Shown here: one piece after another, positions 3,262-36,837 of the stretch
Position numbering within the stretch: position 1 is the first letter of the stretch
Layout of the letters: every line of letters begins with the position of its first letter
IMG/VR virus record: IMGVR_UViG_3300025502_000062
Coordinates: 1 to 38,737 of that record
Direction: 5' to 3' (one strand)
Length of the DNA: 38,737 bases
Origin: a virus
Taxonomy: Duplodnaviria > Caudoviricetes
Translations under genes and position numbers: made by a program
Notes under the pieces: model-generated
Database searches by the model: none
What the model was told of the DNA's origin: nothing
The model's input: only the letters and a program-made list of their open reading frames with translations

Positions 3262-3385
3262 CTGTTGTTTTGGCTATTTCCAAACAAATGACAGTCATTC
3301 CTGTATACACTTTGTTATGTGTGGCGTTTGTGTGGAAAATTGAAAGCGGCTGTGTGGCAACAAAACAAAGGGATTTATAGAGTAA

Positions 3386-3513
3386 AACAAACAAAACAAA
3401 CAAATAACTACTATAGACTAAAGTAAATAATACCCATATAAAACGTAGGGTTAATATATTCTCTTATATATATGGCAGGGAGAAAAACCGAAATTTTGTT
3501 TGTTTTGTTTGTT
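3386..3513. repeat. 19-bp inverted repeat around a 90-bp AT-rich spacer
   Basis: AACAAACAAAACAAACAAA at 3386-3404; its reverse complement at 3495-3513. Confidence 0.85.
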
Positions 3514-12860: not shown

Positions 12861-14702
12861 ATGACTATACTCGCAAAAGCAATATCAATGAACCTAAGCG
12901 CTGGCGGGGTTCTTGAGCCCGCGGTCAATAGCCTTGCAGGGTTGCATATTGCTTTTAGTGATCTAGTATCTGGACCTGCAACTGGTCTAGGTGATGGTCT
13001 AGGTGATGGCACAATCGTCACTCTCTGGTGTTGGGGTATCGGCGATATAAAGGGATTGTCGTCAGTCATGTTTACCGATGCACAATCAGTCAAGCGCAAT
13101 GCAGCGCATCATTATTATTGGAAGAAAGCAGATGGCGAATTGCCTAGCGGCCCTGCAAATCTTTATGAATCTCATGGATTGTACGAGATAGCTTTTTCAA
13201 TTCCTGCTGGATCGGCAACGGGTTTAGGTTCGATTACTATTGGCGTTGGCGCGCAAGAATCTAATAGTATTTCGTTTACGGTTCGCGCTGGGAATATTTA
13301 CTGGGTAGCACCATCTAGTGCTAGTCCATCGGGAAACAATAACAATGCTGGTACTTACGCAGCCCCGAAAGAATATTTAAACGCGACAATCGGAAGTTTC
13401 AGTACACGGAGCCTTTTACAAAACGCTTATAGCGGCGTAACAGCGGGGGATATTTGTTATAGCATAGGTGTTGATGAGCCTACTAGTTATAGTGGTGGTC
13501 GGTCGGTGGGATTAGTGGCTAGAGATTGCACAGGCACGTCAGGAAACCCTGTTTCAATCGTAGCGTATCCAGGCACTAGGCCGACTGTTGGCTTGTCTGT
13601 TGATACGCAGGCAGGATTCTTGCCCATCAACTCGCCGCACTTTAATATATCTAAATTTGCATTTACGTTGGGACACATTGACCCTTCTATATTACCAGCA
13701 GGAACAGGAAATCCAGGAAATCCACAATTATCAAATACTGCATTGACGTGTTCAGGTGGCAATCGTTTTACAGGGAACAAGTGTGGGCAAAGAGCAGGGA
13801 AAATGATTACTGGTTGGAGCGGAGCGATTAATGCTGGTGGAACTGGTATTAATGATACGTTCTGTTTGGGTAATGAAATTTTAGACCAAGGCACTGCTAA
13901 CACTTCTAGGTTTCAGCACACAGTTTATTTTTCAGTTAGAAGTAACATTACAAATACAGGCGATTTCGATTTTAGTTTTAACTATCTGCACGATAACTTC
14001 GCGATGTTTGGGTTTCATTTGTACGACGAAGATCTAGGAAGCGTAACCCCCTTAATGGGCATTACTGGAACGATTACAATTAGCAATAACCTCATTGCTG
14101 ACCAAGTTGGTGCAGGTATCAATTATGCAATCGGCCCTACTATTGGAAATATGTATACAGCAGATCTAATAGTAGAAAACAATCTTTTAATAAGAACGGG
14201 TACTGGCGAAACCGAGTTAGAAGATTCTGTATACCCACCAGCGGAGGCTATTCGGATAGGGGGTATAGAGCCAGCAAACGCCACAATACGCAACAATACG
14301 TTGATTGAATGGTCAAGCCCTGCAAATGTAATAGCCAATGGGGTGAACGGCGGGTTGTCAGTAAGTCATGCAACTGGCGTATGCGTGTGGACTATCGAGA
14401 ACAATTTACTTTACAGTAAAATCGACGACAAGTATGTAAATCTTGGTACGAATGTTTCGACAATAGATAACGACAATAACAATGCTTTTTATACCTCAGC
14501 AACAAACCCGACACTAGACACCAAACCTAGTTGGACAGGCAATGTGACCGTCGATCCACAAATAACAGTGGTTGGCGATAACTACACAATTGATGCTGGG
14601 TCACCCTTAATTAATGCTGGTTTTGTTAGAACTGGCAACCCACTACGAGATATCCAAGGTAAAGCTAGATCGGGTATAGACATAGGAGCGATTGAAAAAT
14701 GA
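12861..14702 (+). CDS. Parallel beta-helix repeat protein with N-terminal Ig/IPT-like domain (putative glycan-binding fibre or spike)
   Basis: YWVAP..GNNNNAGT start motif; repeated I.NN ladders (ISNNLI, VENNLL, IRNNTL, IENNLL); SPLINAG..RDI.G..R..IDIGAIE C-terminus. Confidence 0.8.
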   Translation: MTILAKAISMNLSAGGVLEPAVNSLAGLHIAFSDLVSGPATGLGDGLGDGTIVTLWCWGIGDIKGLSSVMFTDAQSVKRNAAHHYYWKKADGELPSGPANLYESHGLYEIAFSIPAGSATGLGSITIGVGAQESNSISFTVRAGNIYWVAPSSASPSGNNNNAGTYAAPKEYLNATIGSFSTRSLLQNAYSGVTAGDICYSIGVDEPTSYSGGRSVGLVARDCTGTSGNPVSIVAYPGTRPTVGLSVDTQAGFLPINSPHFNISKFAFTLGHIDPSILPAGTGNPGNPQLSNTALTCSGGNRFTGNKCGQRAGKMITGWSGAINAGGTGINDTFCLGNEILDQGTANTSRFQHTVYFSVRSNITNTGDFDFSFNYLHDNFAMFGFHLYDEDLGSVTPLMGITGTITISNNLIADQVGAGINYAIGPTIGNMYTADLIVENNLLIRTGTGETELEDSVYPPAEAIRIGGIEPANATIRNNTLIEWSSPANVIANGVNGGLSVSHATGVCVWTIENNLLYSKIDDKYVNLGTNVSTIDNDNNNAFYTSATNPTLDTKPSWTGNVTVDPQITVVGDNYTIDAGSPLINAGFVRTGNPLRDIQGKARSGIDIGAIEK

Positions 14703-16156
14703 GCACCCCATTAGCCAGAACTTTTTACAATGGTAACTTCCCTAAGGCTGGCATTGCGATAAATGCGGCAACTAAGTTTGCAGCTATAGTCGTAGCTATA
14801 TATGGAGGTGATGGGGCAGTTCCCACAGCGTTAACTTTAAATGGAGTAGCTAGCACCAAATTGGGTAGCACTACTAACACAGGGGGAGAAGAAGCTAATA
14901 TAAGTGTATTTTCGATTTCTGACCCAGAATCAGGCTCAATTGCGATTACGGGTTTTTCAGATGGTATTGGGAAAAACTTAATAGAGGTAATTGAGTATGA
15001 TTTTTATGCAACAATCACTGACTTTGTAAGTCAGGGATTTGGAAATCGATCAGGGAGCACTTTTACTGCTACATACAATTATTCTTCTGTGACGGGGGAA
15101 GAAATAATACTTGTTGGAACTTGTGCTAATGGTTTGATTTCTACTAATACACCATCCATGTCAGCTAATCTGAACAGCCATTTTACAAATGCTATACCAG
15201 TCCAATATGTTTCAGGTTATGATGAAAGCGTATCGACTAGTCCAGAAGTATACACCGCATCTTTTAATCATAGTTCGGCGGGTGGTGGGATTATTGGTAA
15301 TATCAATATTGCTGGTTTTACATTGACACCTGCGGCTGGTGACACAACTATTCCCGTTATCACATTAGTTGGTGCTGACCCAGTTAACATTAATCAGGGT
15401 GCAACTTATACCGATGCGGGGGCCACGGCCACTGACGACACTGATGGCACGATAACCGGTGATATAGCAACAGTTAACCCCGTTGACACTGCCATAGTTG
15501 GCCAATACACAGTCACTTATAACGTTGATGACGCGGCGGGCAATTCGGCCGCTCAAGTAACTAGAACGGTTAACGTGGTTGACGGAACGGCAGCAACATT
15601 ATCATTACCCACCGACACTACAACTAATGTTTCTACAATACTTGGTGCTACGGTTGATGAAGGTTCGACGATTCATACCGTTGCGTATTTAACCAGTGAA
15701 GGCACTGCCCCAACTGATGCCGAAGTCGTTGACGGAAGCTACGCTGGGGCAAGCGGTGTTTATGCCAATGACAAGGTGGTTTCGACGGGGGCATTTACGG
15801 TTGACCCCATTACCGTCGTGGCTAATTCTGCTTATAGTTTTAAGATGATTGCGGTTGATGCCACTAGTAATATAAGTCTTGTACTTACTAGTACCTTTAC
15901 AACTTTGTCAGCTATGATCTCGATTACCACAGATTTACTGTCAGCTACTATTGACGGTGTGCTGTTCAGCACTGCTATTGAGGCAGGCCATGTTGAATTG
16001 ATTACTCTGAATGGTGAAACGACTGATGGTAGCGGTGTTCTACTGATTGATGCGAATAGCCTTTCTGTTACTGATACGCAAGTAGTTGAAGGTATCGCCA
16101 AGGATAGAGCGACAGATGATCCGTTACCAATACAAGGCGCAGTGAGCATAGCGTAA
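14699..16156 (+). CDS. Beta-rich surface protein with one DUF5011-type Ig-like domain
   Basis: DTTIPVITLVG..YTDAGATATD..YTVTYNVDDAAGN..RTVNV at ~15341-15583. Confidence 0.85.
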   Translation: MSTPLARTFYNGNFPKAGIAINAATKFAAIVVAIYGGDGAVPTALTLNGVASTKLGSTTNTGGEEANISVFSISDPESGSIAITGFSDGIGKNLIEVIEYDFYATITDFVSQGFGNRSGSTFTATYNYSSVTGEEIILVGTCANGLISTNTPSMSANLNSHFTNAIPVQYVSGYDESVSTSPEVYTASFNHSSAGGGIIGNINIAGFTLTPAAGDTTIPVITLVGADPVNINQGATYTDAGATATDDTDGTITGDIATVNPVDTAIVGQYTVTYNVDDAAGNSAAQVTRTVNVVDGTAATLSLPTDTTTNVSTILGATVDEGSTIHTVAYLTSEGTAPTDAEVVDGSYAGASGVYANDKVVSTGAFTVDPITVVANSAYSFKMIAVDATSNISLVLTSTFTTLSAMISITTDLLSATIDGVLFSTAIEAGHVELITLNGETTDGSGVLLIDANSLSVTDTQVVEGIAKDRATDDPLPIQGAVSIA

Positions 16157-18129
16157 TGAGCTGGAATAACTTATCGAGCTGGAACTCCTTGACAGGGGCG
16201 GTAGCTGCAACTATTAGCGCGGTAAGTTCTAGCCGTGGAGCAGACATTGCCACAGCCAATGACACCTTAACGATAACGGTTAATGCCTCATTTGGGGTTA
16301 CTGATGTTACTGTTAATGGAGAGGTTTGTACTTCAGTCGCAAGACCTACTAGTACGAGTGTTACTTGCATATGCCCATTGGGTTTTGGTGCGGTTTACGA
16401 AACTAGTGGTGACGTAGTTGTAAATAACGGTGTAGATTCTGCAGGCTACTCAGTCACGTTGAGTGTCCCAAGCACGATGATAGAGACTGATTTCACAGTC
16501 GCTTATGCATCATTGGGTGCTGAGTGTCCTTTTGCTGGTGATACAGATTTTAGTGCAATAGTCATTGGCGATAGTTGTATTAGAGATATAATTACAGCAC
16601 CAGACAGTCACTTTATTAGAATGACTGGTGACGGTGTATTTGCTTTATTCACTGATGGTACTTTCACAACTCCGGCAACAGTCACTAGAACACAAACTTA
16701 TAATTATTATATTTGGGATGCTTCGGATAATACCCAAAGTGCTTCTATTGGCATTGTTACAGGAACCTTTGTGGCTACGCCAGACACCACACCTGACCCA
16801 TTTACTTTTAATAATCAAACTGATGTTGCCTTATCTTCAGAAATAACATCAGACCCCATCACTATTACAGGAATAAACGCCCCCTCTGCAATAAATATAA
16901 GTATCGGTACTTACGATATTAATGGCAGTGGCAATTTCGTTTCAACTGAAGGTTTAGTTAATAATGGAGATTTAATAAGAGTAAGACATACTTCTGCTGC
17001 CTTTAATGGTTCCAATACAGTATCCATACTCACTGTGGGCGGCGTATCTAATGCTTTCATAAGCATAGTTATTGACTTAGATACAACAATACCTGTTATT
17101 ACTTTGGTCGGATCGTCACCAGTTAGTGTGGTTGAAAATACAATCTACACAGATGCCGGAGCAACTGCTAGTGATAATATCGATGGTAATATTACTAGCA
17201 GTATTGAGATACTAAACCCTGTTGATATCGAAACCATTGGTCAATACACAGTCACTTATAATGTGACTGATGCAGAAGGTAACTCGGCAACTGAAGTCAC
17301 TAGAACGGTTAATGTCATTGCTTTAGCTGATGTTATCATTCCGGTTATTTCCCTTCTTGGATCAACGCCAATTGATGTAACAGAAGGCACTTCTTATTCT
17401 GATGCAGGAGCAACAGCCACAGACAATATTGATGGCGATATCACAGGAAATATAGTTACTGTTAACCCCGTTAATATTAACATCGTTGGGGCTTACAACG
17501 TCACTTACAACGTGGACGATGCCGCAGGTAATTCAGCGGCTCAAGTCACGCGGGTAGTTAATGTCGTCGCAGATATCATCCTGCCGGTAATAACCGCTAC
17601 TGGCGACTTAACTATTAACCACACTGTTGACACTGTTTACACTGATCAAGGCGCAACTTGGACAGATAACGTAGACGGCGGGCCTTTTGCAGTTACAGAC
17701 ATAAATGGAACTGTAAATACGGCGGTAATTGGTACGTATACAATAGCATATAACGCCTTAGACGCAGCAGGTAATCGAGCAACAGAAGTTGTCAGAACGG
17801 TTAACGTAGTCGCAGAGTCCACAGGGACTAGTCCTCTGGTTGTTACAAATATAACCACAGTAGCAGACAACATATCAGGCAGCTTGCCTTATGACGGCGG
17901 GAATTTGGCGGTTGATACTGTTAGCGCAATAACGCACATAAGCAACGGTTTGAACTACACGGCTAATCAACGTTTATGCGTAAGCATTGACACGGCTAAA
18001 GCCTACGTCGCTGGCGGGCTCCCGTTCACTAGTGCTGGCCGTATGGCCATGACCACCGACGCGGTTATCTACTATAGCAATGGGTGGCCATTCGCCGCTA
18101 ATGGGCGTATAGCGGTTACAGTGGCTTAG
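16156..18129 (+). CDS. Surface protein with three tandem DUF5011-type Ig-like domains
   Basis: ~81-aa repeats at ~17080-17321, 17329-17571, 17572-17814; C-terminal short G(L/W)x(F/Y)xxxxR repeats. Confidence 0.85.
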   Translation: MSWNNLSSWNSLTGAVAATISAVSSSRGADIATANDTLTITVNASFGVTDVTVNGEVCTSVARPTSTSVTCICPLGFGAVYETSGDVVVNNGVDSAGYSVTLSVPSTMIETDFTVAYASLGAECPFAGDTDFSAIVIGDSCIRDIITAPDSHFIRMTGDGVFALFTDGTFTTPATVTRTQTYNYYIWDASDNTQSASIGIVTGTFVATPDTTPDPFTFNNQTDVALSSEITSDPITITGINAPSAINISIGTYDINGSGNFVSTEGLVNNGDLIRVRHTSAAFNGSNTVSILTVGGVSNAFISIVIDLDTTIPVITLVGSSPVSVVENTIYTDAGATASDNIDGNITSSIEILNPVDIETIGQYTVTYNVTDAEGNSATEVTRTVNVIALADVIIPVISLLGSTPIDVTEGTSYSDAGATATDNIDGDITGNIVTVNPVNINIVGAYNVTYNVDDAAGNSAAQVTRVVNVVADIILPVITATGDLTINHTVDTVYTDQGATWTDNVDGGPFAVTDINGTVNTAVIGTYTIAYNALDAAGNRATEVVRTVNVVAESTGTSPLVVTNITTVADNISGSLPYDGGNLAVDTVSAITHISNGLNYTANQRLCVSIDTAKAYVAGGLPFTSAGRMAMTTDAVIYYSNGWPFAANGRIAVTVA

Positions 18130-27378: not shown

Positions 27379-27482
27379 TTTTTAGGTGCTGCAGACTTCA
27401 CGCACTTGTCAAACAATTCATTTTCATGGGCCATGTTGTCCACGTGACTAGTGCCCATGGTATGAAGAAGGTAATGCAACAT
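27375..27482 (-). CDS. Possible 35-aa peptide (MLHYLLHTMG...APKN)
   Basis: TAATG-coupled to the upstream gene and fills the convergent gap; no other support. Confidence 0.3.
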   Translation of the reverse strand: MLHYLLHTMGTSHVDNMAHENELFDKCVKSAAPKN

Positions 27483-27853
27483 TACCCGCTAGAATCTCTC
27501 ATCATTTTTTCCAGCACCGCTAAAGCATTCCACGCTAAATGGGCTTGATGTTCTATTTTAGTTTCAGGGTCTAGAACCTCACCTGTCTGTAATTTTAACC
27601 AGTGCCGCACCATGGCGTCATCGTAGCGTTCCTTTCCGTTAGCCACGTCCAGCCAACCGTTATCAGTATATTTATTAGCCCCAAAGGTGCCCACCTCGCA
27701 CACTTTTGTCAGTGCGCGGGTGAAAGATCCTAAAACAAGAGACGGGCGTATTTTCCCTTCATCCATTTTAGCGCCTGACACGTGCTGAGGTAGTCCGTTA
27801 GGGTCTGTCTCTATTTTGCCAATAGTAGGCTCTATACGTTCAAAAGTAGACAA
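27482..27853 (-). CDS. dATP/dGTP diphosphohydrolase domain protein (DUF5664-type)
   Basis: GAKMDEGKIR..FGANKY..W..RYDDAMVRH..GEVLDPE..HQAHLAWNAL. Confidence 0.88.
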   Translation of the reverse strand: MSTFERIEPTIGKIETDPNGLPQHVSGAKMDEGKIRPSLVLGSFTRALTKVCEVGTFGANKYTDNGWLDVANGKERYDDAMVRHWLKLQTGEVLDPETKIEHQAHLAWNALAVLEKMMRDSSG

Positions 27854-28499
27854 GTATGCCTCCGTCCACGTGTATACCGTGGCCTTGTAAAGTTATGCGT
27901 TCTTCACCCTCGGGCATTGGCCCAAGGCTTGCTATTCTGTGCGGTGTCATTCCGTCGTGGATATACACCTTGCCCAGTTCGTAGGGCTCAAAAGTAGGTT
28001 TGGGCAGCTTGCCCCGAGCGTTGAAATCTTCCACTTGTTTGCCAGTGAAACGCCACCAAAAATCAGCCCCCGCGCCAGCACTGGGCATTTTCACCGGCAG
28101 AGTGAAGCTGAAAGGTTTGCTCCATTCTAGGTTACTAAGGTTTACACGTGTAAACGGCTCGTCTATGTGTGGGTGCCCTGAGTGGCCGTTCGATGTGTGG
28201 TCAAAAACATGGAAACTAGGCAGTCCCAACCCCCAATCACCGTAACCTATTTTGACCTTGAAATGCCCTTCTAGCACTTTGTTTACTCTGCCGTACATAA
28301 CACTGAAAGCCTCCCAAAGTATGCGGTTAAAAGCGTTCGCAATAGCGGGGTATGCTTTAGGGTCGTCTTGATAAGCGGTGGCTCCCAGCGTCCAGAAATG
28401 CCCCCTGTCTATCAAAAACGGGTCGAGTTTCAACACTTCCTCGGCAATGCTGGCGCATTCCTCGGGCGTGAATACTTCAAGTGTGGTTAAATCTCTCAT
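27840..28499 (-). CDS. 2OG-Fe(II) oxygenase superfamily protein
   Basis: HID (HxD), distal H in PHRI, R in ERITLQ; VFTPEEC N-terminus as in prolyl-hydroxylase-like enzymes. Confidence 0.8.
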   Translation of the reverse strand: MRDLTTLEVFTPEECASIAEEVLKLDPFLIDRGHFWTLGATAYQDDPKAYPAIANAFNRILWEAFSVMYGRVNKVLEGHFKVKIGYGDWGLGLPSFHVFDHTSNGHSGHPHIDEPFTRVNLSNLEWSKPFSFTLPVKMPSAGAGADFWWRFTGKQVEDFNARGKLPKPTFEPYELGKVYIHDGMTPHRIASLGPMPEGEERITLQGHGIHVDGGILVYF

Positions 28500-28523: not shown

Positions 28524-31025
28524 TTAAATTCGGTCATCTTCTCGTAATGCGTTCGATATTTGCTCGGCCATGCCCTCGGTGTCCAGAGTTCTAGCCGCGT
28601 AATAGGTGTTAAGCAGGTCGTGGGCTTTTTTAGAGGTGAGCGCGACGTGTTTAGCGTCAACACCCACGTAACGGTTCAGCAGCCGTGGCCTGACACAAGC
28701 GCCTTTGGCCCCGTCCCACACAGTCCGCCCGTTCAAATCATAGCCGGTACTGGCGTCATTAACTGCTCGTTTTACATACTTGACATTAGTATCGATATCA
28801 AAATGTAAAGGCCCAGCAATCAAAGGGTTATTGAACACCTTGAACACCTCCGACGCGTTGATATACGGGTCAGGCCAAATTTCCATCAACTTCATAACCG
28901 CGAAATCCATGTCAGACAGTGAAGCGCTGGCCATGTCTTTCTTGGCTTGGGTCGAGGGTGGCGGGGCGGTCAAATTCTCAATACTGACTTTCCTAGTCTG
29001 CAGCCAGCGGTAAACAGAACGAGCCCATGAAGGCATACCGTCGTCATCGTACTGGCCTAGCCAATCGTTTAGCGCAGTGAACACCGCAGGAGGTGCAGGG
29101 TTCATGGCGTTGTTCATCACATAAAAACGCCGGTCCTCGGCTGGGATTGCTAACGCGTTTACATGGTTCGTAAGGAATAGATAGCTACTGTGCGCCATCA
29201 CCTCGCGCTTAATACCAAACTTGGGGTTTATGGTGATTCCTCGACTTCTAGGGTCAACCAGTGTTTTGAGTTTTTCATAGTTGTTAAAAAATTTAGACGC
29301 GTCGCCGGACAATGTTTCTTCCGAGACGATAAAAGGTTTTTCCTGCCATTCATTAAAGTCACTGTCACCCACCATGTCCTTAAAAGGCACGTCGGCCACA
29401 TTAGTAGCACCCAGTAAAGTCTTAATCATGTCGGCCAATGTTGACCGCCCGACACCTTGCTGCTTGGCCACCATGACGATTGCCGCGCCTCTAAAACTCA
29501 TGTCCTGACACTTGGCAGCTATCCACGACAAGAAGTATTCGCGGTCGTACTCTTCCGGTATCAAATAGTCTAGGTATTGTGTAAACGTGTCCACATGCCT
29601 TTGATCAATAGGTCCATACCCCCATTCTGGGATAGTGAACAGATTAACGAAATTCTCCCCTTTTCTGGTGACTAAACGGGCGGTTGTGCTTGGGTCGTAT
29701 GTCGTGCCGGCCACTACCACGCGAGAAGGTGACACCGCCCATAGGGCCGTCATGCCTATTAATTTTTGCTTACCGTCAACCATTTGCACCATAGCTTTAT
29801 GTGGGTGCAACACGCCAAAACTAGTCATTACTATTTTCATGTCCCGCAGGTCACTCTTAATATCCCACACAGAATTTTGGGTTTTGTCGAAAACATAGCG
29901 GGTGGTGAGTGCCGCCGAAGGGTCAAAAGCACCGGCCTGAATTCCGCTAGCTGCAGCGATGTATTTTAAAAATTCGGTCGTGGTGTTGACATCTTTACAG
30001 TGCCCGTGGTGGCAGAAAAACACGCGCTGATCAACATTATCGCCACGGCCTAAAGGCTTGTATCTGGCTTCTTGCTTTCCGGTCGTGTGGCCTTCATGCC
30101 ATGGGCATAAAATGTCTATCCACTCGCCCCCGTTATCGTTCGCCACGTAACCCTCATCATAAAGCCATTCAAGCACAGGGTCGATATACCCGTTCATAGC
30201 TTGGGCTTTAGGGGCCACACTAGCCCACGGCGTAGTGCCTAGAGATTTTGACGCTCGGGCTTTAGTAACCGAATCGGCATCAATCAGAACGTCGCCCCAG
30301 TTAACATGAATTTGCAGGGCGTCTAGTATTTCTTGTGGGGAGTACGTGGTCTCGGTCAGGCTGGTTAATTCACTAACGAACGGGCCTTTGTCGCCCTTCT
30401 TGCCGTTTACACCCTCCGGCAACCTGACCAGTTTAACCGGCGTCTTGCCGCCTTCGTCTGAATATCCAGACTCGTAAACTAGCTGAATAAGCGCCTCGGC
30501 TGCTTCCAAAGTGTCTACAGGCTCGTCCAGAATGTACCCGAACTGATAATTTCCTTTACTGCTTTCAATAACGTAAGAGGGCACGAAATCAGCGGGTATT
30601 TTATCAAGCGGTATTTTTGTCCCTATGTCGTCCAGAACTACGACGCGTAAGGAGTTAAACAGTTTTTTGCGGTGGTACAACTTGCCGTCGTCATCGCGTT
30701 TACACGTAGCGGTCGCGAAATACAGGGCCATGGGGTTCTTGGTTATGGCCAAGTATTCGAGCAATTTATGCTCGGTCAGCGGGTAAGCGGGCGAACGGGT
30801 AGGTTTTACTTTCCACGTCAGCACGTGTTCGTCATCATCCAGACCGGCATGGAAAACCGCGTCTAAAAAAGACTCTATTTTGGGGAGGTCATATTCTCTG
30901 GGCGGGATATTAGAAAACTTCAAACCCCCACCAACCTCTGGGAGTGGGCCGTCGGCTTTAACTGCGGCGATTAAATCACTGATCAATGGTTCTTGCTTTT
31001 CAGTTGTACTGCCTGTATCTTTCAT
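28524..31025 (-). CDS. Primase-helicase (RepB-like primase, zinc finger, DUF5906-type helicase)
   Basis: VVLDDIG and IESSKGNYQFGY primase motifs; CPWHEGH..CHHGHC; QGVGRST, VSEE, LTNH, DRRF helicase motifs. Confidence 0.88.
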   Translation of the reverse strand: MKDTGSTTEKQEPLISDLIAAVKADGPLPEVGGGLKFSNIPPREYDLPKIESFLDAVFHAGLDDDEHVLTWKVKPTRSPAYPLTEHKLLEYLAITKNPMALYFATATCKRDDDGKLYHRKKLFNSLRVVVLDDIGTKIPLDKIPADFVPSYVIESSKGNYQFGYILDEPVDTLEAAEALIQLVYESGYSDEGGKTPVKLVRLPEGVNGKKGDKGPFVSELTSLTETTYSPQEILDALQIHVNWGDVLIDADSVTKARASKSLGTTPWASVAPKAQAMNGYIDPVLEWLYDEGYVANDNGGEWIDILCPWHEGHTTGKQEARYKPLGRGDNVDQRVFFCHHGHCKDVNTTTEFLKYIAAASGIQAGAFDPSAALTTRYVFDKTQNSVWDIKSDLRDMKIVMTSFGVLHPHKAMVQMVDGKQKLIGMTALWAVSPSRVVVAGTTYDPSTTARLVTRKGENFVNLFTIPEWGYGPIDQRHVDTFTQYLDYLIPEEYDREYFLSWIAAKCQDMSFRGAAIVMVAKQQGVGRSTLADMIKTLLGATNVADVPFKDMVGDSDFNEWQEKPFIVSEETLSGDASKFFNNYEKLKTLVDPRSRGITINPKFGIKREVMAHSSYLFLTNHVNALAIPAEDRRFYVMNNAMNPAPPAVFTALNDWLGQYDDDGMPSWARSVYRWLQTRKVSIENLTAPPPSTQAKKDMASASLSDMDFAVMKLMEIWPDPYINASEVFKVFNNPLIAGPLHFDIDTNVKYVKRAVNDASTGYDLNGRTVWDGAKGACVRPRLLNRYVGVDAKHVALTSKKAHDLLNTYYAARTLDTEGMAEQISNALREDDRI
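30993..31021 (+). promoter_or_regulatory. Antisense sigma70-type promoter inside the 5' end of the primase gene
   Basis: TTGCTT (30993-30998) N17 TATCTT (31016-31021). Confidence 0.55.
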
Positions 31026-31060
31026 TTTAGCTGCTCTTTGTTGAGTGGTAGCGGTCTCAT
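31022..31060 (-). CDS. 12-aa leader peptide MRPLPLNKEQLK coupled to primase-helicase
   Basis: Preceded by CCAACCAAGGA RBS like other genes here; TGA overlaps primase ATG (ATGA). Confidence 0.6.
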   Translation of the reverse strand: MRPLPLNKEQLK

Positions 31061-31117
31061 TCTCCGCTTTCCTTGGTTGGCTTTTAAGCCCTGATGTTTA
31101 CGCATTGGGGCTTTTTT
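31028..31117 (+). ncRNA. Predicted ~90-nt counter-transcribed antisense RNA
   Basis: Bounded by predicted promoter and plus-strand terminator; internal stem-loop AGCGG-TCTCATTCT-CCGCT. Confidence 0.55.
31086..31117 (+). terminator. Intrinsic terminator oriented against the replication operon
   Basis: AAGCCCTGATG-TTTACG-CATTGGGGCTT then TTTT; two G:U pairs form only on the plus strand. Confidence 0.7.
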
Positions 31118-31211
31118 GTGCGTGTACTTTATCATCTACTTGTCTCATTTTATTTTCACTTTTAGGTTCTTCTGGCTTCCACCAATATCTATCTTTTATT
31201 TGACTATACAT
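31098..31211 (-). CDS. Possible 37-aa peptide (MYSQIKDRYW...SPNA)
   Basis: ATG 1 bp after polymerase stop; no homology evidence. Confidence 0.35.
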   Translation of the reverse strand: MYSQIKDRYWWKPEEPKSENKMRQVDDKVHAQKSPNA

Positions 31212-31212
31212 T

Positions 31213-33210
31213 TTATTTCCCGTATATCGCCATTACTGCTGGTTCGGCTTTCAAGGGGAGGCCCGCAGCCCACTCGGGCGCGAGCTCCATGTAGTCCTGA
31301 CATTCAATAACGTACTGTTCAACTTCTGAATCATGCACTTCCAAAATAATCTCATCGTGTACATGGCCTACTACTGGAAAATCGTCATCCACCATATCAC
31401 CTAGGCACTCTCTCAGCAAACAGGCTGCGGTCGCTTGGGTAACATTTTCCGCTAAAAAACCGCCCCACAAGCTCATTCTAGGCCATTCATCTTCACTGTC
31501 GGCCTTTGGCCGTACTGAGGCTTTCATAGCTGTCACACCTCCTTTTTCTATGCGAGCGTAAGGGTACTGAATGACCGTCTGGTTCGGCAGAATGCACATA
31601 AGCGTGCCGCCCAAAATATCAGGAATATAAATATACTTGACACGGCCGGCAGTGAAAATAGCCCGAGGACTTCTGACCGCGTTTACACTTGCGTTCTCAA
31701 GCTGTTTCCAGAATTTCCGCGCCCATGGACTGGCAGCACGCCACCGATCAACAATGCCCTGCACCTGACTGTTAGGCAGATTTAGCCCGTAGTTTTTGGC
31801 CATGGCTTGGAAAGCTCCGACCGCACCGCCAAAGCCTAGAGATAAAGTGGCTACTTTTCCTATCTGTCGGTCTTCTTCTTTCAGGCCCATACTGAGGGCG
31901 GTCACAATATAGATATCGACGTTCTTGCGAAAAATGTCTAACACCTTTTCACCGCCGGCACTGTCAGTTAGCCATGGCAGCACCATTGCCTCTATTGCTG
32001 ACCAATCTCCCACCACAAATTTGTGGCCTTTGGCCGGTATCAATGCAGGTCGTAGCAGCCGCCCTAAAGTCTCCATCACTGGGAGCCCTGAGTACTCGGC
32101 TATATCGCAGTTGTGGCGCATTAGGGCTTTTAAATCTTCTGTTTGTTGGGCGTTGAAACAGTCACGTTTAAAATTGTGAACCTGCAACCCTTTTGATGAA
32201 TAGCGTGTTGTCTGTCCGGCACCGGCAAATATGAACGCACCGTGTACACGCCCTGAATCTGGGTCGGCTCTTAATAGCATCGACGTAAATTTCGACACAC
32301 TACTGTTCCCGCCTTGGTCGATCAACTCAATCACCTCGCGGAAATTGCCTTCCAGTTCTTCACATTCTAACAGTTGACCGCGAGCCGCTTTATCTAGCGT
32401 GTGTTTAACTTCCCCCTCGGCGTTAGGCGCCTTGGTTATGCATCTTTTTAGCTCTGGCACCTCGGCAAAAACAGGGATTAGAATTTTCAACAGTCGTGCG
32501 GTTTGAGTGACTTTAGTAATAGCGCCATCGGTCAGGGCGTCCAGTTGTCGGCCCAGTTCTTCTTTTTCCTGTTCGGCGTACTTCTGGGCCAGTGTCGCAA
32601 GCTCAAGGTCAATCAGTATGCCTCGGTCGTTTATGCGTTCACTTGTCTGCCAGTCGGCCTTGTCTTCATCTGACATGGGCCGCAGGTTGTTAGTCATACT
32701 GACCATGGCGCGGCTGTCAGTCATGCAATACTTGCCCATTTTCTTTATGAGCGCGGGGTCGTAATTAAACTCTCCGGTCTTTTTGTTTGGGATGCACAGC
32801 TTTTGAATAAGGGCCGTGCCGCTGTGGTCTTTCTTAAATTTGGCGTTGCTCGCTCGGGTGGCGGCATATAGGCTAGCAGGCAGAGCGTTTACACGACACT
32901 GGGCCGCAGTACACACCCATTTATTCGCGGGCAGTTCTGGAAAGCCATAATCACTAACCGCTATATATTCATAAATCAGCTGGTCAAAACGGGCGTTGTG
33001 CGCGTCTAGGGTCTCGGCTGTTTGTAAGGCTAGGGCTAGCAGGGCGGGCACTGGCTGGCCAGCGAACCATAACCATTCATCCCCATTGCTTTTGTTAATG
33101 AAAGAGCAACAGATTATATCTGTGCTGGGGTCACTGGCATAAACATCAGTTCCGCACTTCTTCAAGTCAACTCGGCTTCGAGTCTCGAAATCTAGGGCCA
33201 TGGCTATCAT
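31213..33210 (-). CDS. polA: Family A DNA polymerase (APSE-like) with 3'-5' exonuclease
   Basis: Exo motifs DFETRS, HNARFD, YCMTD; motif A DWSAIE, motif B RQIGKVATLSLGF, motif C HVHDE. Confidence 0.93.
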   Translation of the reverse strand: MIAMALDFETRSRVDLKKCGTDVYASDPSTDIICCSFINKSNGDEWLWFAGQPVPALLALALQTAETLDAHNARFDQLIYEYIAVSDYGFPELPANKWVCTAAQCRVNALPASLYAATRASNAKFKKDHSGTALIQKLCIPNKKTGEFNYDPALIKKMGKYCMTDSRAMVSMTNNLRPMSDEDKADWQTSERINDRGILIDLELATLAQKYAEQEKEELGRQLDALTDGAITKVTQTARLLKILIPVFAEVPELKRCITKAPNAEGEVKHTLDKAARGQLLECEELEGNFREVIELIDQGGNSSVSKFTSMLLRADPDSGRVHGAFIFAGAGQTTRYSSKGLQVHNFKRDCFNAQQTEDLKALMRHNCDIAEYSGLPVMETLGRLLRPALIPAKGHKFVVGDWSAIEAMVLPWLTDSAGGEKVLDIFRKNVDIYIVTALSMGLKEEDRQIGKVATLSLGFGGAVGAFQAMAKNYGLNLPNSQVQGIVDRWRAASPWARKFWKQLENASVNAVRSPRAIFTAGRVKYIYIPDILGGTLMCILPNQTVIQYPYARIEKGGVTAMKASVRPKADSEDEWPRMSLWGGFLAENVTQATAACLLRECLGDMVDDDFPVVGHVHDEIILEVHDSEVEQYVIECQDYMELAPEWAAGLPLKAEPAVMAIYGK

Positions 33211-35769: not shown

Positions 35770-36033
35770 CTAATCCTCAGTTTGGGTTAAAGTGATTGAC
35801 TCGCCAGCGCCCAACAACCTAACTTCGAAATCTGGGGCGTGTGCCCAACACATATCAGGTTCGGGTTTTGACAAGTTCATTATTTCTACTCTGTTCACGT
35901 TTTGGGTTCGCATAATTAGTGCCCCGTTATCATCCCCCATTCCGCCAGCAATAACGCCTATCTGTAAAGGCTTTAAATCCCTAGCCCTTACTTTTTTAGC
36001 TAAAGGCTCTTTGTTTATTTCTACTTTTAACAT
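35770..36033 (-). CDS. Hypothetical protein (87 aa)
   Basis: CCAACCAAGAG leader; in operon. Confidence 0.7.
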   Translation of the reverse strand: MLKVEINKEPLAKKVRARDLKPLQIGVIAGGMGDDNGALIMRTQNVNRVEIMNLSKPEPDMCWAHAPDFEVRLLGAGESITLTQTED

Positions 36034-36060
36034 AATTTTTCTCTTGGTTGGTTTTAAGGG

Positions 36061-36324
36061 TTATCTGTTTTCTTCGGCTCGTACTTCGCGGCATAAAGCT
36101 TCCGCACGTTGGCACACTCTTTCGGCAGTGAAACCGTCCACACCTGAGTTTTCGACAGCGGCTATTACCGCGGACAGAAAACACGTGTGGTTTTTACTTT
36201 CGGATTGTAATCTGTTAATCCGGTGCTGCATTTTACGCACTTTCTTAGCAGTTACTATCGACTGGTAATACATGGCCGCTAGGCCGGCTATACTGATAAG
36301 AGCTAGTAATTCTTCGTTTGTCAT
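36061..36324 (-). CDS. Hypothetical protein with N-terminal TM helix (87 aa)
   Basis: CCAACCAAGGA leader; hydrophobic N-terminus. Confidence 0.7.
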   Translation of the reverse strand: MTNEELLALISIAGLAAMYYQSIVTAKKVRKMQHRINRLQSESKNHTCFLSAVIAAVENSGVDGFTAERVCQRAEALCREVRAEENR

Positions 36325-36350
36325 TTTGGTTCCTTGGTTGGAGGAAAAGT

Positions 36351-36509: not shown

Positions 36510-36794
36510 TTAACGGCGGCCTTTTGCTTGGGCTCGCTGCTCGGTCAGCACGTCGCTAAATTCGCTCTCGTACTCTTTAAAGAAGTCGAACATGCCCGCG
36601 AGGATTTCGAACATACGCAAATTTCTATCGACGGCCATCTGGTGAATCTCGTCGTGTAAACGCTCCGGCAGGTTGCCGATAGTCTTGCGCCGGCTTTCAT
36701 CAATCGGGTACAGTTCGTTATAATTGCCCCGAATGTACGCTAACGAATCTTCTAGTGTCGGCAAATCAGGTTCGGCTTGGTTTTCGTCGGCCAT
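36510..36794 (-). CDS. Ribbon-helix-helix-like DNA-binding protein (start moved to ATG 36794)
   Basis: RRKTIGNLPERLHDEIHQMAVDRNLRMFEILAGMF fits the RHH strand-helix-helix pattern; AAGGA RBS. Confidence 0.55.
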   Translation of the reverse strand: MADENQAEPDLPTLEDSLAYIRGNYNELYPIDESRRKTIGNLPERLHDEIHQMAVDRNLRMFEILAGMFDFFKEYESEFSDVLTEQRAQAKGRR

Positions 36795-36808
36795 GTTTTT
36801 AAATTCCT

Positions 36809-36837
36809 TTGTCAAATGTTTAAAGAATGTATATACT
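36809..36837 (+). promoter_or_regulatory. Sigma70-type promoter for VRR-NUC and helicase
   Basis: TTGTCA-N17-TATACT. Confidence 0.65.

Follow-up and report, generated by a model that had tools for sequence, protein, structure and literature searches.

The phage record IMGVR_UViG_3300025502_000062, analyzed here over its whole 38.7 kb as one window, carries a conserved antisense promoter-terminator unit over the start of its primase-helicase gene. Judged from sequence and conservation, this unit is very probably transcribed, and the ~90-nt cis-antisense RNA predicted from it probably lowers primase-helicase translation by direct occlusion of the ribosome-binding site (RBS). The control style is known from plasmids; what appears to be new is that such a unit sits at the start of a phage primase gene. 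An earlier note on this DNA had proposed copy-number-style control of the primase-helicase by an antisense RNA acting through a leader peptide, encoded by an upstream open reading frame (uORF). The conserved antisense unit over the primase translation start stands, but the leader-peptide relay is largely unsupported. The parts of the unit and the two genes that frame it are as follows.

30993 to 30998, plus strand: -35 box TTGCTT, within primase codons 10-11 (sequence; pattern in 51/70 relatives).
31016 to 31021, plus strand: -10 box TATCTT, after a 17-nt spacer, within primase codons 2-4 (sequence; one frame in 50/51 loci).
31028 to 31119, plus strand: predicted ~90-nt antisense RNA (inferred +1, fold z, family length, and covariance model).
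31030 to 31049, plus strand: predicted stem-loop 1, containing the primase RBS complement, with 3 G:U pairs, stable on the plus strand only (fold).
31050 to 31068, plus strand: predicted stem-loop 2, forming on both strands, with the uORF AUG in the loop on the mRNA strand; closest clade only (fold, covariation).
31069 to 31080, plus strand: linker complementary to the CCAACCAAGG ribosome-site motif, which is the uORF RBS on the mRNA; possible trans seed (motif recurrence).
31086 to 31119, plus strand: intrinsic terminator, 12-pair stem (hairpin 31086-31113) and T-run (terminator scan; 52/70 relatives).
31034 to 31038, minus strand: primase RBS AAGAG, the predicted direct target (sequence).
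31022 to 31060, minus strand: 12-codon uORF MRPLPLNKEQLK; AAGGA lies 9 nt upstream of it, and it overlaps the primase start at 31025 by ATGA (sequence).
28524 to 31025, minus strand: primase-helicase, 833 amino acids, RepB_primase-like N-terminus, DUF5906 (Pfam, PHROGs).
31213 to 33210, minus strand: family A DNA polymerase (polA), the gene upstream in the operon (Pfam).

Primase relatives were drawn from several scans: one gave a single locus, two in viral sequences gave 93 and 159 matches, of which the best 80 each were taken, and a metagenome scan contributed the best 80 of 345. The resulting 195 sequences (window included) were reduced to 116 representatives at <90% protein identity, of which 70 were close and 5'-complete, 32 were more distant and were scored apart, and 14 were dropped as truncated or having no usable start. 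The close relatives are environmental contigs. A relaxed promoter pattern (TTG..-16/18-TA...T) was scored at positions +25 to +85 of the primase gene (its first ~25 codons), and an antisense terminator was scored within 130 nt upstream of the primase start, with the +1 of the predicted RNA taken as 7 nt beyond the -10 box. Internal primase windows, 223 other genes of the same loci, codon-order shuffles, and synonymous recoding served as controls, and a tree was built from 67 of the 70 loci (3 short rows omitted).

The plus-strand TTGCTT-N17-TATCTT promoter of the earlier note is present as placed, and it does not exceed chance from this genome alone. Only 7 of its 12 bases agree with the consensus, and a standard promoter scan does not report it. 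The relaxed pattern has 27 occurrences on the window's plus strand, which corresponds to one in about 1,400 bases or to about 4% per 60 nt. The promoter is beyond chance because it is conserved, the pattern being found in 51 of the 70 dereplicated relatives versus 122 of 2504 internal 60-nt primase windows and 11 of the 223 other genes. Codon-order shuffling gives an expectation of 11.7 ± 3.1 of 70, and random synonymous recoding gives 13.4 ± 2.9 with gene codon usage and 22.2 ± 3.7 with the N-terminal codon pool (maximum of 32 in 500). The -10 box keeps a single frame in 50 of the 51 loci, yet over 10 different codons, and the 16- or 18-nt spacers of 9 of the 51 loci put the -35 box in other frames and residues, which indicates a constraint on the DNA and not on the protein.

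The antisense terminator is found in 52 of the 70 relatives, compared with 5 of the 223 other genes. Promoter and terminator occur together in 45 loci, the promoter alone in 6, the terminator alone in 7, and neither in 12, and none of the 223 other genes has both. Both signals are present in all 11 loci with at least 50% primase identity and in 43 of the 54 loci with a polA-primase gap of at least 40 nt, but in none of the 8 loci where this gap is 25 nt or shorter. In the 67-locus tree, the unit is found on all main branches, and the loci lacking both signals form about four groups. The unit also stays with the primase after a change of the upstream gene, as in L003 and in L223, where the primase lies behind a host tRNA. 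Among the 32 distant primases, the promoter pattern is found in just 1, the terminator in 5, and both signals in 1. In named phages, promoter and terminator are both missing from all 7 annotated primase starts (≤27% identity), and no cultured carrier was found. These distributions bear on the explanation that only the terminator is real, as a barrier to plus-strand read-through, and that A-rich N-terminal codons produce the promoter pattern incidentally. The promoter is weak, with its 7/12 consensus, and the N-terminal codon pool alone gives 22 of 70 loci, but the 51 observed exceed the maximum of every null (32), frame and spacer are near-fixed, and the promoter is lost together with the terminator and appears in 1 of 32 distant primases. 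This explanation is considered very improbable.

The terminator hairpin and T-run described in the earlier note are present, although the plus-strand fold has three G:U pairs and not the two stated there. In the 52 terminator stems, which were selected on the antisense strand, 50 G:U pairs form on the antisense strand versus 13 on the mRNA strand, and the hairpin is stabler on the antisense strand in 34 loci and on the mRNA strand in 15, with a tie in 3. RepB'-like primases use hairpin priming sites, and the N-terminal domain of the phage primase resembles RepB_primase, so that the hairpins might instead be DNA-level signals, either a priming site for such a primase or an origin primer RNA; the lambda OOP RNA was once proposed as a primer (PMC12197685). 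However, the T-run, the promoter, the G:U asymmetry, and the fixed RBS overlap suit an RNA regulator, the stem sequence varies freely, and GC skew tracks gene direction with no switch at the unit, and a role at the DNA level is given hardly any weight here. As a separate observation on this hairpin, its interior (31092-31107 in the window) is inverted in the window and L003 compared with L120, L131, L007, and L123, as a loop inversion between the stem arms.

The predicted RNA is 62 to 133 nt long in 45 loci (median of 90). It spans the primase RBS in all 45 loci and also the AUG in 43 of them. In the window, the plus-strand RNA from 31025 to 31122 folds into three hairpins (z = -4.0, with 0 of 200 shuffles equally stable). 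Stem-loop 1, over the primase RBS complement, is the third plus-strand hairpin and had been overlooked in the earlier note. Across the loci, the RBS complement is predicted to be unpaired above the null in 35 of 45 (0.69 versus 0.52). Among six close sequences, both sides change in 8 of 15 pairs, including 3 of 5 in stem-loop 2 and 5 of 10 in the terminator stem, and 91% of cells pair (80% in stem-loop 2) compared with 38 to 50% in slid controls. Their consensus fold reaches -19.2 on the antisense strand versus -13.1 on the mRNA strand. In addition, a covariance model of these six sequences gave 9 matches in 560 kb, all 9 at primase starts and on the antisense strand, with 7 lying outside the training set. 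UGG-containing loops, a motif picked after inspection, occur in 16 of 45 loci versus 4.0 ± 1.7 expected; U-turn loops occur in plasmid antisense systems. In the leader of L083, the terminator and the RBS are separated by one more hairpin, of 12 pairs (about 3297-3393; z = -4.35).

The proposed mechanism would start from two signals that are seen in the sequence and in its conservation, a promoter pattern of the sigma70 type within the first codons of the primase gene and an intrinsic terminator in the polA-primase gap. The short hairpin RNA that host RNA polymerase would make from this promoter would, by its geometry, be complementary to the whole primase RBS; in most relatives, the complementarity extends to the AUG and first codons. 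An initial contact through the loop would lead to a duplex that blocks 30S loading, possibly with cleavage of the duplex. The primase-helicase, the likely rate-limiting replication initiator, would be capped in this way relative to polA and the upstream genes, because more genome copies would yield more of the RNA. The counter-oriented promoter (as a sequence pattern), the unit's own terminator, and the RBS complementarity are those of the RBS-occluding cis-antisense class of pMV158 RNAII and ColE2 RNAI.

An action at the mRNA level could also uncouple the primase from polA, through convergent transcription interference, OOP-like duplex cutting, or pT181-like termination. The convergent promoter lies at the start of the gene, 11 of the 52 hairpins have an mRNA-side T-run, and precedents are found in OOP, which works via RNase degradation of cII mRNA (PMC12197685), and in pT181 RNAI, which works via attenuation (PMC5703833). 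However, interference alone predicts neither the exposed RBS complement nor the UGG-containing loops, and 41 of the 52 hairpins are without an mRNA-side T-run. As the sole explanation, mRNA-level action appears quite unlikely, but it is compatible with RBS occlusion, and the two can coexist.

Several points weigh against RBS occlusion by a transcribed antisense RNA. The promoter rule and its window were fixed after inspection of close relatives, and although gene starts were chosen by script, that of L007 alone was shifted 12 nt by hand after the main scoring. Just one of the two signals is present in 13 of the 70 loci, and their co-occurrence (Fisher p = 4e-5) overstates independence since the loci are related; the losses in about four tree groups nevertheless indicate that the pattern is not one event. 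The RNA of the window ends short of the primase AUG, and the window is one of the AUG-coverage exceptions because four ancestral first primase codons were lost. Moreover, its RBS complement is paired in stem-loop 1 (0.25 versus 0.71). The pre-terminator part of the RNA folds modestly (median z = -0.69; below -2 in 10 of 45 loci), and the covariation comes from just 6 sequences. The mRNA strand gives the stabler terminator hairpin in 15 of the 52 loci, and the T-run found on the mRNA side in 11 of them belongs here too. Finally, a backward terminator with a CCAACCAAGG-type motif is found at 29 of 35 viral matches (L255-L289) without a primase match downstream. Terminator-plus-CCAACCAAGG parts are a common phage style, and there may be further antisense units among L255-L289.

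The uORF, the leader-AUG hairpin, the promoter, and the terminator were all recovered by sequence and folding where the earlier note had located them. The uORF has its own AAGGA RBS, the primase RBS AAGAG is at 31038-31034, and the loop of the hairpin at 31050-31068 holds the uORF AUG. In the relay that the note had proposed by analogy with CopA/tap/repA and Inc/repY/repZ, the antisense RNA would block the uORF RBS, and primase translation would be coupled to the uORF through the ATGA overlap. In R1 CopA/tap/repA and IncI Inc/repY/repZ, the rep RBS is sequestered, and the antisense RNA acts through the leader. Such a relay is favored by the window, L123, and L007, which have an ATG uORF with AAGGA 9 to 11 nt upstream, ending at or 4 nt before the primase start; L120 and L131 also contain an ATG uORF in this frame, although a spaced RBS is missing there. 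In addition, the uORF RBS motif is the phage's own early-gene style, the closest clade has the weakest primase RBS, and 4 of 45 loci (the window, L123, L007, and L156) have a coupled ATG uORF preceded by an RBS, compared with a shuffle mean of 0.96 (p = 0.013). However, the uORF is missing in the other 41 loci, and three of the four uORF-bearing loci, the best cases, are closely related. In L003 (76% identical), the hairpin loop lacks a start codon, and L126, L005, and L004 keep a CCAACCAAGG-type motif with no ATG, GTG, or TTG at a usable distance behind it. The primase start of the window is also not sequestered: its predicted opening energy is 4.4 kcal/mol, lower than the 9.2 of the uORF start and the median of 6.3 among 27 other genes of the window, whereas tap coupling would require the opposite. 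The RNA reaches the primase RBS anyway. The open primase start and the rarity of the uORF indicate that a tap-like relay is not the family mechanism, and CopA/tap/repA-type control was rejected in that role, the coupled leader ORF not being conserved with the unit, though present in the window. A relay of this kind is regarded as improbable. Among the signs that the earlier note had named for comparison with relatives, the antisense -35 and -10 boxes, the terminator, and covarying stems are kept, but the coupled uORF is kept in few loci. Translation of the uORF may occur in the window because its RBS motif precedes early genes, and the uORF would at most supplement the antisense control within a single subclade.

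Under direct RBS occlusion, the closest parallels are found in plasmids and in phage regulators. The same geometry as that of the predicted phage unit is seen in pMV158/pLS1 RNAII with CopG (PMC5703833), where it belongs to a rolling-circle plasmid of Gram-positive bacteria with a 48-nt RNA and a Rep_2 initiator (PMC5703833), whereas the unit described here belongs to a tailed phage with a primase-helicase and an RNA of 62 to 133 nt. An RHH (ribbon-helix-helix)-like gene is present 5.5 kb upstream in the phage, in 3 of 14 records, unlike the CopG of pMV158. In the ColE2/RepA-PFP group (PMC5304414), an antisense RNA with three stem-loops likewise faces the leader of a Rep primase mRNA, and a leader peptide is likewise variable and present in some members only; these are plasmid replicons, however, with the putative promoter in the leader and not in rep and with an unrelated Rep family. 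The R1 and IncI systems resemble the phage in having an antisense RNA upstream of a replication gene and, in the window, a coupled uORF. In the phage, however, the primase RBS is open and is itself covered by the predicted RNA, and few loci have the uORF. Lambda OOP is transcribed backwards from the start of a replication gene. It is a 77-nt phage RNA that acts on cII, the upstream gene, at its 3' end (PMC12197685), whereas the RNA predicted here lies mostly in the gap and covers the RBS of the downstream gene.

The P22 sar RNA (RF00262) is a phage cis-antisense RNA that blocks translation initiation (PMC12197685, PMC13397905, PMC2629481), and its terminator hairpin matches that of the window in 26 of 30 columns, but its target is the antirepressor gene ant and not a replication gene. 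Membership in the sar family was rejected: the window scores 19.2 bits versus a gathering threshold of 43 (E = 0.38), the match covers only model positions 34-63 (the terminator half), and the downstream gene is a primase-helicase and not ant in an immI region. The terminator sequence also varies widely among the phage relatives, which weighs on this likeness. No Rfam family reaches its gathering threshold in the window; five sub-threshold matches were obtained, of which sar is the nearest antisense one, and none was accepted as membership. The phage unit would work like pMV158 RNAII, P22 sar, and ColE2/RepA-PFP but is no member of these by sequence.

Antisense control of a replication initiator is the classic way in which plasmids count copies, and the phage antisense RNAs found described have regulators (ant, cII, and Q) as targets. 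The present unit takes ~130 bp and uses host-type signals. No description of an antisense RNA over a phage primase start was found in open-access full text, most subscription papers lying outside that search, and the word "primase" is absent from the main text of a recent phage small RNA review. In PMC10914365, the noncoding RNA candidates, as distinct from the antisense RNAs, are reported to include a short conserved RNA that lies upstream of the primase/helicase gene of PAK_P3.

The CCAACCAAGG-type motif is also the RBS of several early genes of the window, at 680-856, 35770-36033, and 36061-36324 (motif at 865-874, 36042-36051, and 36332-36341, respectively). The linker at 31069-31080 pairs over 12, 11, 9, and 9 contiguous bases with the RBS regions of four minus-strand genes, and its pairing with the plus-strand genes of the window is nowhere longer than 8 bases. 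Leader matches to the RBS regions of other genes exceed shuffles in 4 of 14 records (window, 5 versus 0.86; L007, 3 versus 0.71; L085, 2 versus 0.24; L088, 3 versus 0.42) and not in the other 10. Since the leaders match other genomes too and the excess is not genome-specific, a shared RBS style explains the trans matches equally well, and trans action of the antisense RNA on other early genes is a lead only. In the L085/L088 clade, the primase leader and other gene leaders share a different motif.

The persistence of the unit across proteins 32 to 35% identical suggests timed replication or a nonintegrated carrier state in these uncultured phages; a strictly lytic phage would have little obvious need for a dosage-dependent primase brake. 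The Pfam families PF13614, PF00239, and PF00589 (ParA, serine resolvase, and tyrosine integrase) have no match in any of 14 records, 11 of which are at least 90% complete. A multicopy state needs no partition, resolution, or integrase genes. A primase homolog, 31 to 34% identical, with the antisense unit is also found in a Rhodospirillaceae metagenome-assembled genome (MAG) (L223/L298:16929-19539; G014 contig 23), where it lies directly behind a host tRNA-Thr, with host genes upstream and no polA. This copy is probably used in an integrated element, either an integrated island or a satellite. None of three MAG contigs with the unit has a tyrosine integrase, the L223 contig ending before one could be seen. 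In a broader reading, these integrase-less phages would persist in the host as plasmid-like replicons with copy number set by the antisense RNA (and a CopG-like repressor in some), and the RNA would silence other early genes in trans via a CCAACCAAGG-complementary seed and block incoming kin with a matching leader. This scenario is tentative and rather unlikely; if true, it would give a widespread family of aquatic phages a means of incompatibility or immunity based on RNA.

The plus strand of the window carries terminase, portal, major head, and tail genes, and the minus strand carries the replication operon with a DUF2800 nuclease, the family A polymerase, and the primase-helicase. The earlier note had called this module APSE-like, which holds loosely for gene content (polA, DUF2800, a VRR-NUC-type endonuclease, and SNF2) but not for the primase, whose best match among named phages has 25.5% identity. 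Two further minus-strand features of the operon are as follows.

36510 to 36815, minus strand: RHH (CopG/Arc-like) look-alike, the first gene of the replication operon; a lead only (feature score 0.93).
31098 to 31211, minus strand: 37-codon ORF between polA and the antisense unit, ending in the terminator loop (ORF list).

The RHH look-alike gene is divergent from the endonuclease and SNF2 genes, probably starts at residue 8, and has homologs in 2 of 13 other records. The 37-codon ORF, which had been overlooked in the earlier note, begins one base past the polA stop and has no real match among the fetched relative loci; because of it, the polA-primase gap is 187 nt in the window versus about 100 to 115 nt in close relatives. 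In the structural region, two proteins encoded at 14699-18129 on the plus strand contain bacterial surface Ig-like repeats (Pfam PF16403) and have few matches among relatives. Downstream of the primase, at 27482-28499 on the minus strand, lie a dATP/dGTP diphosphohydrolase-like gene and a gene for a 219-amino-acid protein of unknown family, hinting at modified DNA or control of the nucleotide pool.

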